Virus record (IMG/VR): IMGVR_UViG_2740892234_000024
Direction: 5' to 3' (one strand)
DNA: 8,307 bases
Origin: a virus
Lineage: Duplodnaviria; Heunggongvirae; Uroviricota; Caudoviricetes
Shown piece after piece: positions 1 to 8,307 of this stretch. The position numbers were made by a program, and so were the translations under genes. The notes beneath the pieces were generated by a model. That model worked only from the letters and a program-made list of their open reading frames with translations. It made no database searches and was not told the DNA's origin. Position 1 is the first letter of the stretch. Each line of letters begins with the position of its first letter.

Positions 1-579
1 TTAGCCGTTAAGTTTAACTGCCAGACCTGCGACATATTCCCCTTGATAACGAGCAATAGACAGTTCTTCCTGGCTTGGCTGGCGTGAGCCGTCACCGCCT
101 GCGATGGTGGTTGCGCCGTACGGCGTACCGCCGCGAACCTGTGAAACGTCAAATAATTCCTGCGCTGCGTAGCCAATGGGGACAATTACCATGCCGTGAT
201 GCGCAAGGGTCGTCCAGGTTGAAGTAATAGTTTGTTCCTGACCGCCGCCAGTACCGGTGGAACTAAAGACGCTCGCCAGTTTTCCGTATAGTGCGCCGGA
301 AGCCCACAGGCCGCCCGTCTGGTCGAGGAAGGTACGCATTTGACCGGACATGTTGCCAAAGCGGGTAGGTGTACCAAAAATAATGGCGTCGTAATCGGCC
401 AGTTCTTGCGGGGTTGCAACCGGTGCAGTTTGCGTTTTACCGCCTGCTTTTTCAAATAATTGCGGCGGCATGGTTTCCGGTACACGCTTAACGACAACTT
501 CTGCGCCATCGACTTTGCTTGCACCCTCAGCGACTGCGCGTGCCATCGTTTCAACATGTCTAAGGATATGGTTTATCAT
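1..579 (-). CDS. wrbA: NAD(P)H:quinone oxidoreductase WrbA, 3-prime portion with a phage-derived start; the native N-terminus is replaced by about 9 different codons (MINHILRHV, then [10 protein letters not shown]... onward matches WrbA as recalled)
   Basis: 192-aa ORF; from [38 protein letters not shown] to the C-terminal AVKLNG it matches E. coli WrbA as I recall it. TAA stop at 1-3. ATG at 579-577 overlaps the int stop (ATGA). Confidence 0.85.
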
Positions 580-580
580 T
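540..580. other. Approximate prophage/chromosome junction (int-proximal att core) inside wrbA
   Basis: WrbA-like translation begins around the codons for ETMA (about nt 540-556); upstream codons diverge from native WrbA and run straight into the int stop. Exact core not determinable without the uninterrupted wrbA allele. Confidence 0.4.
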
Positions 581-1886
581 TTGAAAAATATAATTTTATT
601 TCATCCTCCTGGTCACTTTGGGGCACGTCTGGGGCACGGGCATTAAGGACATTATTCAACATGGCAACTTGAGTCACGCTGCACTCAGGCATCCATGCAC
701 CATAAACATTGTAGACCATGCTGGCGCTGGAGTGCCCCATCTGTGATGCAATAAATGTCGGGTTTGCTCCGGAAGATAAAGCCCAGCACGCATAGGTATG
801 GCGTGACTGATACGCTTTACGGGATCGGATACCCGCTCTTTTTATTGCTGAATCCCATGTCGCTCCGATGGAGCTTACCGCGTAGTTAATACCCGCCTTG
901 TGATTCTTGCGAACGATTTGCGGACAGAAAACAAAAGTGCACTCGTGCAAAATTGTTCTTCCGTACTCGCGTAATTGAACAGTGATCTGATGCTGCCTGC
1001 TAAGACGAGTAAGCATCGCCTGGTTTTTAAGTGCTTCAATTGCTGGTGCCAGAAGATGTATAACCCGGTTAGTGCCTGCGTCGGTCTTTGGTAGCGTAAA
1101 ATCACCTATTTTTGTAAAATTTCGTCGCACTGTTATCGTGCCAGCTTTCAGGTCGATATCCTCCCATGCAAGTGCGGCAATTTCACCGTGTCGCATCCCT
1201 GTAAAAACAGCCACTGTCCAGAGGTTTTTGGTCTGTTGATGATGGCAGGCATCAATGAGACGGCTAAACTCATCTCTGGTCAGTGGATCCGGCACTGGTT
1301 TTGATTTCCTCAGCGGTGTTATTGAATTAAACGGGTTTTTCTCCAGATACCCGTTTTCGGCGGCAAAGCTGAACATTCCGGCTGTTGTTGTCATGTAATA
1401 GTTCACTGTGGGTACGGTTCTTCCTTTTCGGGACGTGCTGGTTTTCCTGCTTCCCTTTTCCCCGGTCAGTAAATCTTTCCTGATAAACAGCAGATCTTCT
1501 TTTGTAATCGATGACGCCAGCCTGCCAGGACCAAGCCTCGGTAGCATATTTTTCATCACTGATTGATAACGATTTAAGGCGTTACTACCGATTTCCATTG
1601 CTTTCAGAGTAAGCCATTTCTGTGCCAGTTCACCGACGGTGATATCTTTTTTTACCAGGCCAAATAGCTTCAGGTTAGGTGAGTCAGGGAATCGATCGGC
1701 ATAATCAAACGTTCCTGTTCTGATTGCAAAGCAGACCGAAGCCCTTAACTCACCAGCGATCTTTCTGTTTTTCGGTGTATCGGGCACGCGAAGATTTTCG
1801 CGCACTCGTTTACCCCTGTACTTAAACGTTATTCGGAGTTTTCCTCCGTGATTTTCAACGCCGGCTGGATAGGCTGAATTCGCCAT
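576..1886 (-). CDS. int: Phage tyrosine integrase (site-specific recombinase)
   Basis: Long ORF next to the att junction with tyrosine-recombinase-type C-terminal region (...[15 protein letters not shown]..., ...[27 protein letters not shown]...). The track start at 1910 is a GTG; the ATG at 1886-1884 (MANSAYPAG...) is preceded by AGGAGG and is preferred. Confidence 0.85.
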
Positions 1887-1938
1887 TGTTCCTCCTGCGT
1901 CCAAGAGCACGCTCAGGTTATACTCTTATGGACAAGAA

Positions 1939-2238
1939 TTAAACATCCTGAGATGGTAAGGGTTGGTTTTTGATCCAAGTGTTGATGGTAGGAAGATGAT
2001 AGAGACATTCGCTGTTTTTCTTTGGCGTTCCGTCGGGGGCGATTTGTTTATATTCTCTGCCGTTCATCCACGCACTGTCCCTGGCGCGTAATATTGTTCC
2101 TTTTCTCAGGCCTGTTACAGCCATTAAAAGCTCCAGTGTTACCCATTCATTCGCATTTATCTGTACAACAGGTGTGATGACTGGCTGAATGCCATGGTTA
2201 TGTTGGTTTACTAACTCGCGCATAAGTTGCCTCTGCAT
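1939..2238 (-). CDS. xis: Excisionase-like DNA-binding protein
   Basis: Small ORF immediately upstream of int; the segment EWVTLELLMAVTGLRKGTILRAR resembles the DNA-binding region of excisionase-family proteins. An internal ATG at 2223 has a better RBS (GAGG) than the ATG at 2238. Confidence 0.6.
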   Translation of the reverse strand: MQRQLMRELVNQHNHGIQPVITPVVQINANEWVTLELLMAVTGLRKGTILRARDSAWMNGREYKQIAPDGTPKKNSECLYHLPTINTWIKNQPLPSQDV

Positions 2239-2679: not shown

Positions 2680-2964
2680 TTATTCATTGCCGATATTCAC
2701 CTTTATCGCGAACACCTTTACCGGTTTATCTCCGAAGTGTGTATGTGTGATTGTCTTGATTTTATATCCGTCATACGGGACGTTAATTCTGCGGCTGGAG
2801 TCGTCGCGCTTCGGATATCCCTTTGTGATAATCAGGCGGTCATACTCCCGGAACATAATTCGCTTATTCCAGTAGTCATTACACAGGCGATACTCTTCTG
2901 TTTTCTCTCCGCGAATCATGGCATCGAAGTATTCACCTTTGACTGCAAGTTGCAGGTTAGCCAC
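2680..2964 (-). CDS. Small ASCH/DUF3850-like protein (PUA-like fold, recalled from family pattern)
   Basis: 94-aa ORF; GTG start at 2964 preceded by AGGAGG with 6-nt spacer. N-terminal pattern VKGEYFDAMIRGEKTEEYRL resembles ASCH-type domains. Confidence 0.55.
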   Translation of the reverse strand: MANLQLAVKGEYFDAMIRGEKTEEYRLCNDYWNKRIMFREYDRLIITKGYPKRDDSSRRINVPYDGYKIKTITHTHFGDKPVKVFAIKVNIGNE

Positions 2965-3241
2965 GACCTTCCTCCTTTGGCTTGTGAATTTGTATCGTCA
3001 TGCCGCTTTGAGTGGTGACTACAACGACAGAACCAGGCTGAAGGCTGTTAAGATTGAATGCTTCGTAAAATGAATCCAAGGCCAGTGCTTTTTTATTCTT
3101 TCGGTTCCACCAACGCCATCCCTTGCTACAGGCTACACTGACAATCCACTGTCCACTCCTATAAGCCAAATAAAACCAGATGAGCAAAACCTGAAGGAAT
3201 GCTATCCAGTCAATAATCGTATATTTCGCGAAGGAGTCCAT
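2957..3241 (-). CDS. Small membrane protein (one predicted transmembrane helix)
   Basis: ORF with hydrophobic stretch IIDWIAFLQVLLIWFYLAY; ATG at 3241-3239 overlaps the upstream stop (TGATG), AGGAGG upstream. The track start at 3244 is a TTG. Confidence 0.5.
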   Translation of the reverse strand: MDSFAKYTIIDWIAFLQVLLIWFYLAYRSGQWIVSVACSKGWRWWNRKNKKALALDSFYEAFNLNSLQPGSVVVVTTQSGMTIQIHKPKEEGRG

Positions 3242-3852
3242 CAATTAACCTCCTGCGGCGGTTCTGGTAGCGGCATCCAGTGGGTTACTCCATGCCATAT
3301 ACCAGTTAAGGTTTCAAACCTTGGCTCTCTGCCTTTCTGTGTCTTGGCATATTCATTCCTTGTATATACGCATTGTCTAACTGCATATTCATTCCATCCA
3401 ATAACTGTTTGTCTAATTTCTGGCATTCGCTCACTACAGCTTATCCAACCATCCGGAATTACCGGAGAGTTGCCAGCCTCATACGCCACACGCATCCAGT
3501 GCATAAGCGTTTCAGTGCTCACACATCCGCAATCAACGTCTATTTTTTCTTTTTGTTCTGACAACCATTCCTGGAATGACAGCTTGGCAGTCTGGCTTGC
3601 TGGCTCAATTCGTGGCAGGCCGATATATAGCGGTACATTTCCCGGATCCATCGAATTGTCGGGACAAATAAACGTGTTACAACCATATTTAACGAGCTCA
3701 ATTCCCGCGGTGTCGATAGTGGCGAATGGTTCAGCGGTCAATGCAGTCAACGCAATTTCATAAGCACGGCGCTCAATATTGTCCCGCACCCCCAGACTGC
3801 TGATATGTTCTTTAATTTCTTTAATTAGCTCTTTGTCGGTAATAGTGGTCAT
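3241..3852 (-). CDS. DUF551/Eaa-like phage protein
   Basis: 203-aa ORF ending in ...GIWHGVTHWMPLPEPPQEVN, the tail I associate with DUF551-type proteins of lambdoid early-left regions. Confidence 0.65.
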   Translation of the reverse strand: MTTITDKELIKEIKEHISSLGVRDNIERRAYEIALTALTAEPFATIDTAGIELVKYGCNTFICPDNSMDPGNVPLYIGLPRIEPASQTAKLSFQEWLSEQKEKIDVDCGCVSTETLMHWMRVAYEAGNSPVIPDGWISCSERMPEIRQTVIGWNEYAVRQCVYTRNEYAKTQKGREPRFETLTGIWHGVTHWMPLPEPPQEVN

Positions 3853-3854
3853 AG

Positions 3855-4046
3855 CTATTTCACCTTAATCTCAACATTTCGCAGCTTTAGCTCTACTGGC
3901 ATGTCTGACTTTCCTGTTAATGCTAATGCGAGATTTTCTGGAGTAATGAGAGCAGTTATTGTTTTCCCCATCGCCAGACGAATAATCATTCGTATCTCGC
4001 GATCGTCACATGCTCCCGGTCGAACAATTGAGATTTGTCCGTTCAT
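3855..4046 (-). CDS. Hypothetical 63-aa protein
   Basis: ORF whose ATG follows the conserved junction sequence GGAGAGTGAGATG that supplies its RBS; no family recognised. Confidence 0.5.
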   Translation of the reverse strand: MNGQISIVRPGACDDREIRMIIRLAMGKTITALITPENLALALTGKSDMPVELKLRNVEIKVK

Positions 4047-4047
4047 C

Positions 4048-4071
4048 TCACTCTCCTTTGATGCGAATGCC
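4048..4071. repeat. 24-bp gene-junction repeat tcactctcctttgatgcgaatgcc, copy 1 (identical copy at 5965-5988; degenerate relative near 4543-4568)
   Basis: Exact 24-bp identity read directly. On the minus strand it encodes the tail GIRIKGE plus TGA and contains the GGAGAG RBS for the next gene. Confidence 0.9.
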
Positions 4072-4539
4072 AGCGGTACTCATTCTCCTGATTTCCCAGA
4101 GCACACGAGGAATACCACCGTTTCCGACCGGATCGCGTTTACTCCGCAGGGCGACGCTTGATTCCGCCCAGCTTTTTCTTGGAGGAAGCTCTTTCACACG
4201 AACAAAACCAGCTGCGCGAAGAGATGCTCCTGATTCATCTGCCTGGGTGTACGTAATACAACGTTGATAACCCATAGCTTTTGCTGCCCGCCAGACAGCA
4301 CCATAAAGCGCGCTGTTAGCGTTGCGTTCTCCTGTGGTACATGTGCGATTTACTTCAAGCGTTAATCCATCGTCCAAATGTCGTGCAACAGGTCGACCAG
4401 CTGTCGCCACACCTATCAATTCTCCGGCATTATTTCTCAGACCAATGCTGAATTTATGCCCCACTGGTGGTTTATTGTGTCGGTGGTGCTGTGCGATAAA
4501 TTCCTGCGCCGCTTTCAGCGTTATAGGTGAAATGACCAT
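4048..4539 (-). CDS. Conserved phage protein of unknown function (possibly GNAT-like fold) carrying an Ea22-type C-terminal tail (...GIRIKGE)
   Basis: About 163 aa; ATG at 4539 overlaps the upstream stop (the GTG at 4542 is the alternative). C-terminus matches the tail of the Ea22-like gene at 5965-6467. The fold guess is from loose motif resemblance only. Confidence 0.6.
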   Translation of the reverse strand: MVISPITLKAAQEFIAQHHRHNKPPVGHKFSIGLRNNAGELIGVATAGRPVARHLDDGLTLEVNRTCTTGERNANSALYGAVWRAAKAMGYQRCITYTQADESGASLRAAGFVRVKELPPRKSWAESSVALRSKRDPVGNGGIPRVLWEIRRMSTAGIRIKGE

Positions 4540-5132
4540 CACTCAGACTCCTCCTTGATGCCAGCGGCGCTTGCTGATTCTTCATATGCGCGTTTAGCAG
4601 CGTTAAGGATTGCTGCCAGTGGCGTATAGCCGCCATCCATTCGGATTGTGTTGTGGATGCCAGCCATTGTGTCGCGCAATTTGCTGTGGCTAGCAGACAG
4701 TTCTGCTATGCGCTTACTTCCATCCGCGATTACTCCCTCGTAATACTCGCGTTGCTCGTTGAGTTTTGATTTTGCTTCCTCAAGCTCAACACGCAGTTTC
4801 CCTACCGTTAGCGCAATATCCTCGTTCTCCTGGTCGCGGCGTTTGATGTATTGCTGGTTTCTTTCCAGCTCATCCAGCAGCGCCAAGACGGTAGCCGGAT
4901 TGGCTGCGGCGATGAATTCAGCATTGGCCTGCTGTTCCATTTGGAAATCTTCATCGAAACCGCTTTCAGGATGCGCTCCTTCAATTCTGCAAATGGGAAT
5001 ATATCCAGCAGCCTCGCGATGAATTAGTGCATCATCACCATCAAATCGGCTCTCTCCATATTCGAGAGACCACTCACCACACGTTGCTTTTTCTGCCTTT
5101 TCACGCAGTACCTGATAGTCAATCTTGCTCAC
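4539..5132 (-). CDS. Ea22-like family protein, paralog 1
   Basis: Coiled-coil core LLDELERNQQYIKRRDQENEDIALTVGKLRVELEEAKSKLNEQREYYEGVIADGSKRIAEL matches lambda Ea22 as recalled. Preferred start is GTG at 5132 (VSKIDYQVLRE...) with AGGAGG 6 nt upstream and GTGA overlap with the upstream stop; the ATG at 5165 is probably an over-extension. Confidence 0.7.
   Translation of the reverse strand: MSKIDYQVLREKAEKATCGEWSLEYGESRFDGDDALIHREAAGYIPICRIEGAHPESGFDEDFQMEQQANAEFIAAANPATVLALLDELERNQQYIKRRDQENEDIALTVGKLRVELEEAKSKLNEQREYYEGVIADGSKRIAELSASHSKLRDTMAGIHNTIRMDGGYTPLAAILNAAKRAYEESASAAGIKEESE
4778..4878. repeat. About 100-bp repeat, copy A (in Ea22-like paralog 1); copy B is at 6161-6262
   Basis: Direct comparison shows about 7 mismatches in 100 bp; encodes the shared coiled-coil segment. 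Copy B runs into the N-gap at 6263. Confidence 0.9.
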
Positions 5133-5963
5133 TGGTTTCCTCCTTTGCGAATCTGTTCCGCCCATTCTTCAAGGGATTTCTCCGCATATTCACCAGACAG
5201 GCCATCAATCGGATGCGCTTCATTAGCCAACTCTTCTTTCGCTGACAAAATCATGCGTGTAACGTCGAAAACTTCACGCAAAGACTTATTGATAAATCCG
5301 TGATTGAAAGCAGCAGCAAGACGGCTTGCGGTATAGTTAATACCCTCGTTGCGAGCCGCCGCACGAATTTCAGCCAGGAAAGCGTCGGTGGCTGGGGTTT
5401 CCGTGAAGTTGTCCTCCCAACCGTAGTACTCCTGACGACAGAAGTTATTAAATTCCTTCTCCGACTGTTTAAGCTCCGCATTCTCTGCCGCCAGCACCGA
5501 AAACTTCTCGTGTGCCAACTTAACAGCCGCATCAGCCTGCTTAATTNNNNNNNNNNCCGGGTTCTTTAATGTGCAAGCGAGGCTCACCATCTTTTGGCTC
5601 AGGCCACTGGCGCTCCATGTTGATCTTCAATTTATCTTCCATAGCAGCGGTAATTTCAGCATCGCTGATGCCAGCACGGCGCTGTGCATCCCACAACAGA
5701 AACTGCATATCAGCCCACTCGCTAAGATCGTCTGGTTCGGCTGCGGCTTCCAGTGCCTCTTTTGAGAGATGTTTCAGCGGACCAATGGGGCCAACGCAGC
5801 CAAATGTGGAGTCAGACCATTTGGCATGCTCGTGGCGAATCTGTTCGCGTTCCAGTGATGCCAGTGCAATTCGTGCCAGTTCCATTTGTTCGCCACGAGT
5901 AAGTCCGTTATCAAGCGGATTTTTAATGAATAATTTGATACGTTCTTTGGTTATAGCGCTCAT
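5129..5963 (-). CDS. MazG-like NTP pyrophosphohydrolase domain protein (DUF550-type dATP/dGTP pyrophosphohydrolase-like), interrupted by the N-gap at 5547-5556
   Basis: N-terminal part (5557-5963) has the all-alpha MazG-type acidic pattern (EALEAAAE ... EWADMQFLLWDAQRRAGISDAEITAAMEDKLKINMERQW). The C-terminal part (5129-5546) continues after the gap in a shifted frame. Start ATG at 5963 follows GGAGAGTGATATG. Confidence 0.55.
5547..5556. other. Assembly gap (10 N) inside the MazG-like gene
   Basis: Run of N; reading frames on the two sides differ, so the true gap length is unknown. Confidence 0.95.
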
Positions 5964-5964
5964 A

Positions 5965-5988
5965 TCACTCTCCTTTGATGCGAATGCC
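5965..5988. repeat. 24-bp gene-junction repeat, copy 2
   Basis: Identical to 4048-4071. Confidence 0.9.
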
Positions 5989-6467
5989 TGTTGCAATGCT
6001 GTTTATGATGCTGTCAGTGCATGGGGTAGAAAGCTGGGCATCTCCAGCAATTCTCATGACCTCAACATCTGCATATCGAATACCGAGGTGTATCAGACCG
6101 GCTATACCTGACTTAAGCCGAGCATTTTCCATAAACAGATCCTTTGCACGCTGTTTTTCTGCCTCAAGCTCAACGCGCAACTTCCCTACCGTTAACGCAA
6201 TATCCTCGTTCTCTTGGTCGCGGCGTTTGATGTATTGCTGGTTTCTTTCCCGTTCATCCAGCNNNNNNNNNNTTGGTCTTCGGCCAGCTCCGCTAAATTA
6301 GCCTCCAGTTCGGCTATGCGTTCGTTTAATGCATCTCGTTCATCCAGTAGCGCCAGCACAACCTGAGGTGTGACTTTCATACGAAATGCCAGCAATTTTT
6401 GAGGCGTTGCTACTGTTTCAATTGCTACTGCCGCCTCACGCAGTGCCTGAGAGTTAATTTCGCTCAC
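5965..6467 (-). CDS. Ea22-like family protein, paralog 2, interrupted by the N-gap at 6263-6272
   Basis: N-terminus MSEINSQALREAA..., coiled-coil segment and C-terminal ...GIRIKGE all match lambda Ea22 as recalled. ATG at 6467 overlaps the TraR-like stop (ATGA). Confidence 0.7.
6161..6262. repeat. About 100-bp repeat, copy B (in Ea22-like paralog 2)
   Basis: See copy A at 4778-4878. Confidence 0.9.
6263..6272. other. Assembly gap (10 N) inside Ea22-like paralog 2
   Basis: Run of N placed at the edge of a roughly 100-bp repeat shared with paralog 1. Confidence 0.95.
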
Positions 6468-6685
6468 TTCGAACCTCTCTGTTTACTGATAAGCTCCAGA
6501 TCCTCCTGGCAACTTGCACAAGTCCGACAACCCTGAACGGCCAGGCGTCTTCGTTCATCTATCGGATCGCCACACTCACAACAATGAGTGGCAGATATAG
6601 CCTGGTGGTTCAGGCGGCGCATTTTTATTGCTGTGTTGCGCTGTAATTCTTCAATTTCTGATGCTGAATCAATGATGTCTGCCAT
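6464..6685 (-). CDS. TraR/DksA-family C4 zinc-finger protein
   Basis: 73-aa ORF with CCECGDPIDERRRLAVQGCRTCASCQ (CxxC-x17-CxxC), the DksA/TraR-type zinc finger. Confidence 0.75.
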   Translation of the reverse strand: MADIIDSASEIEELQRNTAIKMRRLNHQAISATHCCECGDPIDERRRLAVQGCRTCASCQEDLELISKQRGSK

Positions 6686-6728
6686 CTTTCATTAATCCCT
6701 GAATTGTTGGTTAATACGCTTGAGGGTG

Positions 6729-6738
6729 NNNNNNNNNN
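6729..6738. other. Assembly gap (10 N) between the two copies of the TraR-like 5-prime region
   Basis: Run of N flanked by near-identical 188-bp sequences. Confidence 0.95.
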
Positions 6739-6884
6739 ACCAGGCGTCTTCGTTCATCTATGGGATCGCCACACTCACAACAATGAGTGGCGGATATAGT
6801 CTGGTAGTTCAGACGACGCATTTTTATTGCTGTATTGCGCTGTAATTCTTCAATTTCTGATGCTGAATCAATGATGTCCGCCAT
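6739..6884 (-). pseudogene. Partial second copy of the TraR-like gene (N-terminal 48 codons, cut off by the gap)
   Basis: ATG at 6884-6882 opens a frame encoding MADIIDSASEIEELQRNTAIKMRRLN... that runs into the N-run. Confidence 0.5.
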
Positions 6885-6934
6885 CTTTCATTAATCCCTG
6901 AATTGTTGGTTAATACGCTTGAGGGTGAATGCGA

Positions 6935-6960
6935 ATAATAAAAAAGGAGCCTGTAGCTCC
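6935..6960 (-). terminator. Intrinsic terminator for the leftward transcript
   Basis: 5-bp stem (ggagc 6946-6950 / gctcc 6956-6960, loop ctgta) followed on the minus strand by TTTTTTATTAT; lies 23 nt downstream of the stop at 6983. Confidence 0.45.
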
Positions 6961-6982
6961 CTGATGATTTTGCTTTTCATGT

Positions 6983-7198
6983 TCACCGTTCCTTAAAGAC
7001 GCCGTTTAACATGCCGATCGCCAGGCTTAAATGAGTCGGTGTGAATCCCATCAGCGTTACCGTTTCGCGGTGCTTCTTCAGTACGCTACGGCAAATGTCA
7101 TCGACGTTTTTATCCGGAAACTGCTGTCTGGCTTTTTTGATTTCAGAATTAGCCTGACGGGCAATGCTGCGAAGGGCGTTATTATGTTCTATTGTCAT
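6983..7198 (-). CDS. Hypothetical 71-aa protein translationally coupled to the upstream 250-aa gene
   Basis: ATG at 7198 (MTIEHNNALRSIARQ...) preceded by GAGG, 8 nt downstream of the 250-aa gene stop at 7206. The track extension to 7336 overlaps that gene and is not preferred. Confidence 0.6.
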   Translation of the reverse strand: MTIEHNNALRSIARQANSEIKKARQQFPDKNVDDICRSVLKKHRETVTLMGFTPTHLSLAIGMLNGVFKER

Positions 7199-7205
7199 AT
7201 TGGCC

Positions 7206-7958
7206 TCACACTTCGAATGCCAGTTGAGGGGTAAAGACGTCCCGTTCAGCATTGTAATTAAGTGAACTGGCACTGTTGAATGATTCAATGCGTTCCACAA
7301 GAACTTGCGTACGGGTTTCTTTACTTGCGGGAGCATATGGCGAACCTACCCAGGATTTGTCGATGCCTATATTTCTTGCGACGTTCGTGCTGTCTGCAGA
7401 CGAAAGCGGTACATGAGTAAAAATGTCTTTATTTAACATCCGTAACCCATGAATCTTGGTGATTGGGTAGCCGTACTGATCTACAACATGACGTATAAGA
7501 TCGCGTAGTTTAGCCCGACACGCTCTCGGTCGTTTTGCATCGCATTCCCCCATCGAGCCGATGCAGACGCGGGGAAACTCATGGCACAGACGAATAAATC
7601 GCTCATCTGGTTCGTTCATGTGCCACACCGGAGCACCAATAAATTTACCGTGAGGCCATGCCGCAATCAGGGCGTCATTCTCTTCACTGGTTCCGCCGAT
7701 AACATCCGGGATAACCGCGAATGAGAAACGAGGGTGATTACCCCAGCGTTCAACAAATCTGTAATATTTATTCCAGTCTACGGCCTTGTTTTTTGTCCAG
7801 AATGTGAATGCACCATTATCAAGAGCAAATGATTGGGTGACTTCGGAAGCCAGATCAATCTGAGCTGGATTAGCAAAACTGATGAATGCGTGTCTGCCTT
7901 TCCAGGCTTTCAACGCACAGGTATCGGGAGTTATTGGACCACCGTGAAAATGAATCAT
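7206..7958 (-). CDS. 250-aa protein with tRNA-guanine-transglycosylase-like motifs; candidate DpdA-like DNA 7-deazaguanine transglycosylase (hypothesis)
   Basis: Clean ORF with ATG overlapping the upstream stop (ATGA). FALDNGAF resembles the TGT LTDSGGF motif, and SADSTNVARNIG resembles TGT FDCVMPTRNARNG with identical D-x5-R-N spacing. Motifs matched by eye against recalled E. coli Tgt. Confidence 0.7.
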   Translation of the reverse strand: MIHFHGGPITPDTCALKAWKGRHAFISFANPAQIDLASEVTQSFALDNGAFTFWTKNKAVDWNKYYRFVERWGNHPRFSFAVIPDVIGGTSEENDALIAAWPHGKFIGAPVWHMNEPDERFIRLCHEFPRVCIGSMGECDAKRPRACRAKLRDLIRHVVDQYGYPITKIHGLRMLNKDIFTHVPLSSADSTNVARNIGIDKSWVGSPYAPASKETRTQVLVERIESFNSASSLNYNAERDVFTPQLAFEV

Positions 7959-8119
7959 ACACTCTCCCGTTTATTATTTATCTCCTCAGCCAGCCGCTGT
8001 GCTTTCAGGGGATTTCGGGTAACAGAAAGGCCGGGAAATACCCAGCCTCGCTTTGTAACGGAGTAGACGAAAGTGATCGCGCCTACCCGGATATTATCGT
8101 GAGGATGCTTCATCGCCAT
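7955..8119 (-). CDS. Small protein in the lambda orf60a position (immediately downstream of exo)
   Basis: 54-aa ORF ([54 protein letters not shown]); the second Met at 8113 gives ATGA overlap with the exo stop; its own stop overlaps the next ATG (ATGA). Confidence 0.55.
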
Positions 8120-8307
8120 TGCTCCCCAAATACAAAACCAATTTCAGCCAGTGCCTCGTCCATTTTTTCGATGAACTCCGGCACCATCTCGTCAAAACTC
8201 GCCATGTAATTTTCATCCCGCTCAACCACGACATAATGCAGGCCTTCACGCTTCATTCGTGGGTCATAGTTGGCAAAGTACCAGGCATCTTTTCGCGTCA
8301 CCCACAT
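8110..8307 (-). CDS. exo: Lambda-type exonuclease (Red-alpha), 3-prime end only; gene continues beyond the window
   Basis: Translation [65 protein letters not shown] matches the C-terminal 65 residues of lambda Exo as recalled, with a few substitutions. Confidence 0.85.

Follow-up and report, generated by a model that had tools for sequence, protein, structure and literature searches.

The 164-aa ORF of the window (the whole stretch of 8,307 nt that was analysed) encodes a member of the XF1762 family with a GNAT fold, an assignment of which we are all but certain. As judged from remote homology and from a donor-site signature that it has in common with phage Mu Mom, the protein appears to be Mom-like without belonging to the Mom family in the strict sense, and this putative relative of Mom probably helps the prophage to evade restriction. 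The 63-aa gene that follows is merely the module that comes after a gene boundary in this locus and is not the partner of the enzyme. The locus is an ordinary mosaic, holding one member of a Mom-like family.

Locus and operon

The window corresponds to the left arm of a lambdoid prophage with wrbA as integration site, and the genes discussed are all on the minus strand:

1-579, minus strand, WrbA-type flavodoxin fragment
576-1910, minus strand, integrase
1939-2238, minus strand, excisionase
2957-3244, minus strand, DUF4752
3241-3852, minus strand, DUF551 gene, the next operon gene downstream of the 63-aa gene (Pfam DUF551, E 1.2e-15)
3855-4046, minus strand, 63-aa ORF (PHROG 1222, E 1e-40)
4040-4071, minus strand, boundary cassette GGCATTCGCATCAAAGGAGAGTGA-G-ATGAACG with tail codons, stop and start of the 63-aa gene (direct repeat D3)
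4048-4542, minus strand, 164-aa ORF, XF1762-family compact Mom-like GNAT gene (NCBIfam NF045478)
4051-4083, minus strand, non-core C-terminal tail MSTAGIRIKGE of the 164-aa protein (residues 154-164)
4539-5165, minus strand, first Ead/Ea22-like gene, upstream of the XF1762 gene (Pfam Ead_Ea22, E 1.7e-39)
5957-5988, minus strand, second copy of the cassette, where the second Ea22-like gene ends (…ATGIRIKGE*) and the next one begins
about 5965-6467, minus strand, second Ead/Ea22-like gene
6464-6685, minus strand, TraR/DksA zinc-finger gene
7206-7958, minus strand, DpdA-like gene
7955-8119, minus strand, DUF1317
8110-8307, minus strand, end of the exonuclease gene

Both ORFs named in the preliminary description, of 164 and 63 aa, were thus found on the minus strand with the peptides that it quoted, and the location that it had proposed for them, the lambdoid early-left accessory region, was confirmed, since the XF1762 gene lies between exo and xis/int.

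Translation of the XF1762 gene from a GTG at position 4542 gives 164 aa, while an ATG at 4539-4537 gives 163 aa. This ATG shares bases with the TGA that ends the upstream Ea22-like gene (TGATG), and GGAGGAG lies 8 nt before it; the copy in phage TL-2011a is annotated at 163 aa. The true start is therefore likely to be the ATG at 4539, giving a 163-aa protein, and its overlap with the upstream stop codon is the predicted site of translational coupling. Scanning of positions 3200-5300 disclosed neither promoter-like sites nor, on the minus strand, terminator-like ones, indicating that the genes are coupled members of a long early-left transcript. Because of its translational coupling within this leftward early operon, the XF1762 gene would be expressed early after induction or infection, with no promoter of its own. 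An independent moron, with a promoter or terminator belonging to it alone, was rejected, the coding strand being devoid of candidate sites. We also rejected a linkage between the XF1762 gene and the DpdA-like gene of the same operon, which was found in only 4 of 104 loci, with distant homologues only.

Family, fold and comparison with Mu Mom

The 164-aa protein matched the NCBIfam model NF045478 ('XF1762 family') with 207.2 bits (E 8.7e-62; curated equivalog cut-off 50), its residues 4-137 being aligned with positions 2-130 of the 143 of the profile. It is full-length with respect to this family, but carries an extra Ea22-type tail of about 10 residues outside the model. The single-domain motif set (H-R-H, E-x-x-R, N-x-x-S, E-x-G-x-S-L, W…W-E; ~145-155 aa) is fully present, and the protein is strongly basic (pI 10.5). 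It also matched PHROG 1384, 'Mom-like DNA modification protein' (E 1.4e-43), which is the same PHROG as that matched by Mu Mom (E 7.9e-84). With the Pfam Mom model (PF25680) it scored 24.2 bits, for a gathering threshold of 27.1, and covered only profile positions 3-124 of 202; conversely, Mu Mom gave no match to the XF1762 model at E<=0.01. A search of the 164-aa protein at a cut-off as loose as E<=1 gave no match to Pfam Ead_Ea22 (PF13935).

RefSeq uses the name 'XF1762 family protein', which derives from a Xylella fastidiosa prophage ORF, for near-identical copies in E. coli (DNA identity up to 100%). The preliminary description had spoken of a widely conserved phage family of unknown function. 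The family is indeed large and phage-borne, but it is not nameless: it is already catalogued in RefSeq and, as 'Mom-like', in PHROGs, with a putative function. A search of the literature on XF1762, 'Mom-like' and PHROG 1384 retrieved annotation mentions only. The wide conservation was borne out: at E<=1e-3, homologues amounted to 4897 clusters when grouped at 90% identity, and the 50% identity level gave 3794 representatives, 557 of them at E<=1e-30. Proteins sharing 51-71% identity were found in Mycobacterium, Streptomyces, Clostridiales, Acidobacteria, Planctomycetota and Dehalococcoidia, and, of 5426 complete E. coli genomes, 144 had the gene. The search for related loci was built on alignment A1, and the census comprised 104 loci with an XF1762 homologue.

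The AF2 model, obtained with an 80-sequence alignment (pLDDT 90.7, pTM 0.84), had a GNAT topology, in the order beta1, alpha1, beta2-4, alpha3, beta5, alpha4, beta6, a 26-residue segment, beta7 and the disordered tail. The segment between beta6 and beta7 (residues 120-145) was modelled with low confidence as two short helices. Foldseek comparison with the PDB gave Mu Mom (8BV8) as joint-best match, with a query-normalised TM-score of 0.72-0.73, the highest among the matches listed; the other matches listed had values of 0.58-0.67. The suggestion of an acyltransferase-like fold made from the sequence was therefore correct. Sequence searches of the PDB, whether with the single protein or with the A1 profile, gave nothing significant, and Mom was reached only by fold comparison.

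Mom is a GNAT that moves glycine from Gly-tRNA(Gly) onto N6 of adenine in dsDNA, the product being 6-NcmdA (PMC13219725). Its residues R111, S124 and R151 are essential, H58, Y59, Y159, W48 and W181 are important, and its HTH-like insertion (175-209) is required, as its deletion abolishes activity (PMC13219725). R101 (= R111; the Nat Commun numbering is the 231-aa numbering + 10) is conserved among Mom homologues, but not among GNATs generally (PMC7261163). The identification of Mom as a tRNA-dependent DNA-modifying GNAT is recent (2023 preprint, 2026 paper). Alignment of 80 XF1762 proteins with 41 Mom proteins by hhalign was significant (E 3.5e-4), while a shallow XF1762 profile aligned with a single Mom sequence gave too weak a result. 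The following residues were paired (conservation in alignment A2, n=80):

H20 with Mom H58, kept in 79/80
E63-x-N-R66 with Mom E108-x-N-R111, R66 being kept in 80/80
N74-x-x-S77 with Mom N121-x-x-S124, N74 and S77 being kept in 75/80 each
E103 with Mom E150, kept in 78/80

R21 and H22 were also kept in 79/80. Two of the residues essential in Mom, R111 and S124, accordingly have counterparts (R66 and S77) in the XF1762 proteins. The beta4-alpha3 loop (residues 69-77) reads T-T-G-E-R-N-A-N-S, comprising a Mom-type R-N-x-x-S, and the canonical CoA pyrophosphate motif Q/R-x-x-G-x-G/A was missing from it, both observations being made by inspection only.

Other elements of Mom were reduced or absent. 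The region aligned with Mom D149-Y159 reads T-Q-A-D-E-S-G…S-L-R in the 164-aa protein. The counterpart of D149 (D102) was found in only 18 of the 80 XF1762 proteins, and that of R151 (position 104) was Ser, Pro or Thr in 62 of them, Arg not being among the five commonest residues. Mom Y159 aligned with L108 or R109, Y59 with R21, and the dimer-interface residue W48 with K10. The XF1762 protein begins at about Mom residue 28-29 (231-aa numbering), lacking the N-terminal basic extension, and it is also devoid of the 8-residue beta3-beta4 insert of Mom. Its beta6-beta7 segment, opposite the HTH-like insertion, has 26 low-confidence residues versus roughly 46 in Mom, i.e. it is about 20 residues shorter; global hhalign paired W125 with Mom W181 in this region, but not significantly, and hhalign restricted to the C-terminal parts gave no significant alignment with the insertion either. 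Taken as a whole, XF1762 and Mom are both phage-borne, basic GNAT-fold proteins of PHROG 1384 with equivalents of H58, E-x-N-R111, R-N-x-x-S124 and E150 in common. They differ by their size (about 154 residues for the XF1762 core versus 231-241 aa), by the lack of conservation of D149, R151 and Y159 in XF1762, by its score under the Pfam Mom threshold, and by the presence of the XF1762 gene in an early operon, without com-type control.

The GIRIKGE boundary and the 63-aa gene

The conserved fold ends at …LWEIRR, and in alignment A1 the sequences of several close relatives extend only 1-2 residues past WEIRR. The tail that follows in the 164-aa protein had no secondary structure in the AF2 model (pLDDT 71-81). 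Its DNA belongs to a direct repeat, positions 4040-4071 and 5957-5988 being identical for 30 of 32 nt, whereas the chance expectation for such a repeat in 8.3 kb is about 1e-8 (rough estimate). On the coding strand, the cassette reads GGC ATT CGC ATC AAA GGA GAG TGA N ATG, i.e. the codons for G-I-R-I-K-G-E, a TGA stop, one spacer base and the ATG of the next gene, whose Shine-Dalgarno, AAAGGAGAG (GGAG), lies inside the tail codons. Only these 7 final codons, the stop codon and the ribosome-binding region downstream are common to the Ead/Ea22-like proteins; the likeness of the two tails is that of a boundary sequence and not protein homology. The last 7-11 residues do not belong to the enzyme and represent the translated side of a portable gene boundary, a textbook module boundary that doubles as a ribosome-binding site.

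In the census, GIRIKGE-type tails were present in 61 of the 104 loci, the rest having other Ea22-type tails (such as AAGIKVEVK and AGIKWEAE) or none. The genes found after GIRIKGE-tailed XF1762 genes were diverse: that of an 87-aa PHROG-1714 protein (36 loci, in a P2-like context), the 63-aa gene or directly the DUF551 gene (16 loci), the genes of a 95-aa protein (4 loci) and of a 171-aa protein (3 loci), plus others. Other complete genomes of E. coli have these ~34 nt, 100% identical, at the junction of an Ea22-like gene with a DUF551, ClpX-zinc-finger or HNH gene. Since the same boundary joins many different genes, the earlier proposal that the tail held in common with the second Ea22-like gene marks a recombination joint is right, and it is general. 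Such portable module boundaries have long been described for lambdoid mosaicism (Hendrix-type literature). Recombination in this mosaic region joins modules at the tail, which serves as the portable boundary.

The 63-aa ORF reads as a real gene. Its product is small and basic, with 88 homologous clusters, nearly all of 63 aa and 59-97% identical, which are restricted to Enterobacterales and their phages or prophages; S6, I7, R9, P10, D14, R19, G27 and R56 are invariant. The AF2 prediction (pLDDT 82.8) is of a small fold, rich in beta structure and with a single helix, for which Foldseek found no match in the PDB (best E 0.4). There was no match in Pfam (E<=1), NCBIfam or PADLOC, the sole match being to PHROG 1222, of unassigned function; the statement that this gene has no recognisable family was therefore essentially right. 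An AbrB/MazE-like fold, suspected from the sequence pattern, was dropped because the Pfam search at E<=1 and the Foldseek search were both empty. Our guess, and a weak one, is that this early-region product acts as a small binding protein or inhibitor.

The two genes had been described as an accessory pair, a view that did not survive the co-occurrence check. They were found together in 16 of the 5426 complete E. coli genomes, i.e. in 16 of the 144 with an XF1762 gene. The combined query matched 1070 genomes, but in most of these it was an Ea22-like gene, with the same boundary, that directly preceded the 63-aa gene, an arrangement that included O157:H7 strains and >100 Stx phages. In the census, 9 of the 104 XF1762 loci had the 63-aa gene. 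It was always the next gene downstream, its ATG following the stop codon by 2 nt, and it accompanied only XF1762 copies that were at least 93% identical. Phages TL-2011a and Kapi1 (the latter P22-like) also have the pair, and the P2-like PhiR44_2 has the XF1762 gene with a different neighbour. The XF1762 and 63-aa genes thus behave as independent modules, and the 'pair' of this window is an accident of mosaic recombination.

Possible function of the Mom-like protein

How might such a protein act? The 164-aa protein is a compact, strongly basic, single-domain putative transferase with a GNAT fold, and belongs to the short sister group of Mu Mom. An activated acyl or aminoacyl donor would bind in the GNAT donor cleft, as in Mom, this cleft being lined by the Mom-specific E63-x-N-R66 and R-N74-x-x-S77. 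The group would then be passed to a nucleobase of double-stranded (phage) DNA, and the modified DNA would blunt host restriction. We give this mechanism as a whole an even chance of being correct, and a role in DNA modification, taken by itself, an even chance at best. The anti-defence role put forward in the preliminary description is thus plausible through the relationship to Mu Mom, but remains putative. Several points count against the mechanism. The counterparts of Mom D149, Y159 and R151, the last of these essential, are not conserved, the segment opposite the HTH-like insertion, which Mom requires, is shortened, and the score with the Pfam Mom model is under its threshold. Moreover, the Mom gene of Mu is expressed late and under tight control, while the XF1762 gene lies in an early operon. 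Because of the lack of D149, R151 and Y159 and of most of the HTH-like insertion, the donor, the target base or the product probably differ from those leading to 6-NcmdA.

The genomic context suggests DNA modification, through a handful of loci and fusions in several phyla. An XF1762 domain was found fused to a Dam/D12 N6-adenine methyltransferase in P0149, which was present on 4 contigs from different samples and whose N-terminal domain scored 199 bits with the XF1762 model, and to a C5 cytosine methyltransferase in P0195. Further fusions were with DUF6884 and with YodL+LPD28 polyvalent-protein domains. A D12 methyltransferase gene lies immediately upstream of the XF1762 gene in a Mycobacterium locus (L022), as does an SNF2+N6_N4 methyltransferase gene in a Clostridiales locus (L023), while a C5 methyltransferase fragment and a dCMP deaminase are encoded near the XF1762 gene in a third one (L009). 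When the 147 ORFs that flank the gene in 19 diverse loci were submitted to a blind Pfam census, they yielded mostly generic phage genes and only a few DNA-modification families, indicating that the association with methyltransferases is suggestive, not statistical; DNA methyltransferases are in any case common in phage early regions.

Several other functions were considered. An ordinary acetyl-CoA-dependent GNAT would acetylate a host or phage protein, or else a small molecule (e.g. polyamines, antibiotics, defence signals), rather than DNA, in the service of host takeover or anti-defence. We consider this unlikely, as the loop has the Mom-type R-N-x-x-S and the Mom-specific Arg instead of the CoA motif, the HMM libraries link the protein to Mom rather than to acetyltransferase families, and the high pI as well as the methyltransferase fusions and adjacency point to nucleic acid. 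The latter features would also fit a GNAT-fold nucleic-acid binder that is non-catalytic or differently catalytic, with RNA or tRNA as target or acting as a specificity or accessory subunit of a methyltransferase. The loss of the equivalents of Mom R151 and D149, the frequent methyltransferase fusion or adjacency, and the very basic character with a conserved H-R-H loop that is unique to the XF1762 family all go in this direction. Yet E63, R66, N74, S77, E103, G105 and S107 are near-invariant across phyla, as expected for a maintained active site, and the E. coli prophage copies are without any adjacent methyltransferase, which makes this binder distinctly improbable in our view.

A functional pair was also envisaged, e.g. 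a TacT/AtaT-type GNAT toxin that acylates charged tRNA, for which the 63-aa protein would be the antitoxin or a regulator. In favour of this, only 1 nt separates the two genes, which are coupled in translation, the 63-aa gene has a small, conserved product, GNAT toxins that act on aminoacyl-tRNA do exist, and Mom itself uses charged tRNA (PMC13219725). These toxins, and likewise the FemX-type aminoacyl-tRNA transferases, have the GNAT fold in common with the 164-aa protein and are conceptually related to it through the use of, or action on, aminoacyl-tRNA (PMC13219725). However, TacT, AtaT and FemX were absent from the top fold matches listed and gave no sequence-family match, and the adjacent antitoxin of TacT/AtaT-type systems has no conserved equivalent here: co-occurrence was limited to 16/144 genomes and 9/104 loci, the usual predecessor of the 63-aa gene is an Ea22-like gene, with no XF1762 gene present, and GIRIKGE-tailed XF1762 genes have several different downstream genes. 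Neither an antitoxin domain or fold in the 63-aa protein, nor a local promoter, nor a PADLOC match was found. The toxin-antitoxin, or 'accessory pair', reading was therefore rejected on the co-occurrence counts, and we regard any such functional coupling as exceedingly improbable.

Returning to the Mom-like transferase, a bolder version of this proposal is that XF1762 is a second, minimal Mom-like class, installing an undescribed base modification, perhaps with aminoacyl-tRNA or another donor, and setting its target without the HTH-like insertion. We would rather bet against this version. Such a class may be spread by phages across many bacterial phyla, with some members fused to Dam-/Dcm-type methyltransferases. 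If it exists, an unrecognised gene for DNA hypermodification and anti-restriction is carried by thousands of phages and by about 3% of E. coli genomes. Mom has until now looked like a one-off, and XF1762 keeps two of its essential residues (R111 and S124) in a much smaller scaffold, with about 3800 clusters at 50% identity. Should XF1762 modify DNA, it would represent a widespread, overlooked anti-restriction or epigenetic function, and a minimal model for DNA recognition by GNATs. The contribution of the window itself is more modest, since it holds a member of an already-named family.

In PADLOC, both proteins and their neighbours were without match, save two marginal ones (E ~0.003-0.008), which were to DndD/PbeC and concerned the coiled-coil Ea22-like protein. 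In another of the related loci (L103), a 641-aa ORF that follows the XF1762 gene contains FAGGGG, which, by eye, is possibly motif I of a C5-methyltransferase.

Candidate DNA-modification genes in the early-left operon

The early-left operon that carries the XF1762 gene also holds a DpdA-like gene, located 2.7 kb upstream:

7206-7958, minus strand: DpdA-like ORF of 250 aa, matching PHROG 887 ('queuine tRNA-ribosyltransferase') with an E-value of 4.5e-98

A Pfam search with this ORF gave no match. Judged by DpdA motifs, its product presumably resembles a candidate DpdA-like DNA transglycosylase (7-deazaguanine DNA modification). Since the same operon holds both genes, the prophage may have two candidate DNA-modification genes, DpdA-like and XF1762. 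Elsewhere the two are unlinked: they were found together in 4 of the 104 loci sampled, only as distant homologues.

In soil metagenomes, we found the XF1762 domain joined to a methyltransferase:

L005 (a sampled locus), 6001-7359: fusion of XF1762 with a Dam/D12 N6-adenine methyltransferase, 452 aa; also in L006, L007 and L008

The XF1762 domain of this protein is bona fide (199 bits), and the four contigs that encode the fusion each come from a different sample. A second methyltransferase gene (N6_N4) and a recombinase gene lie near the fusion gene.

The protein of 63 aa encoded directly downstream of XF1762 in the window (3855-4046, minus strand) also matched a family annotated as 'DNA methyltransferase', PHROG 11564, its residues 26-60 (the C-terminal 35) aligning with the final 35 positions of that family (E-value 5.9e-6). 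The match probably reflects a common mosaic tail rather than kinship with methyltransferases.

Neighbours and plasmid copies of the XF1762 gene

In P2-like prophages, the XF1762 gene with the GIRIKGE tail is followed by a conserved gene that replaces the 63-aa gene and is the commonest downstream neighbour of XF1762 in this sample of loci:

L044 (a sampled locus), 4497-4757, and 35 other loci: protein of 87 aa, PHROG 1714 (no function assigned)

In E. coli, the XF1762 gene was found in 151 copies, 20 of them plasmid-borne. Three of the plasmids concerned (NZ_AP027413.1, NZ_CP091707.1 and NZ_CP074765.1), each of about 58 kb, are possibly phage-plasmids.

Repeats and runs of N in the window

4770-4878 and 6154-6262: direct repeat of 109 nt, 92% identity, in the coiled-coil middle part of both Ea22-like genes
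6464-6685 and 6711-6884: two copies of a TraR/DksA zinc-finger gene, the second broken by N
5547-5556, 6263-6272 and 6729-6738: three runs of N, 10 nt each

The 109-nt repeat offers an additional recombination substrate in the region. The TraR/DksA gene may have been duplicated in tandem, or its doubling may be an artefact of the assembly. The three runs of N resemble masking or scaffold joins; the first sits between the Ea22-like genes, and the other two fall within repeated genes, namely the second Ea22-like gene (6263-6272) and the second TraR/DksA copy (6729-6738).
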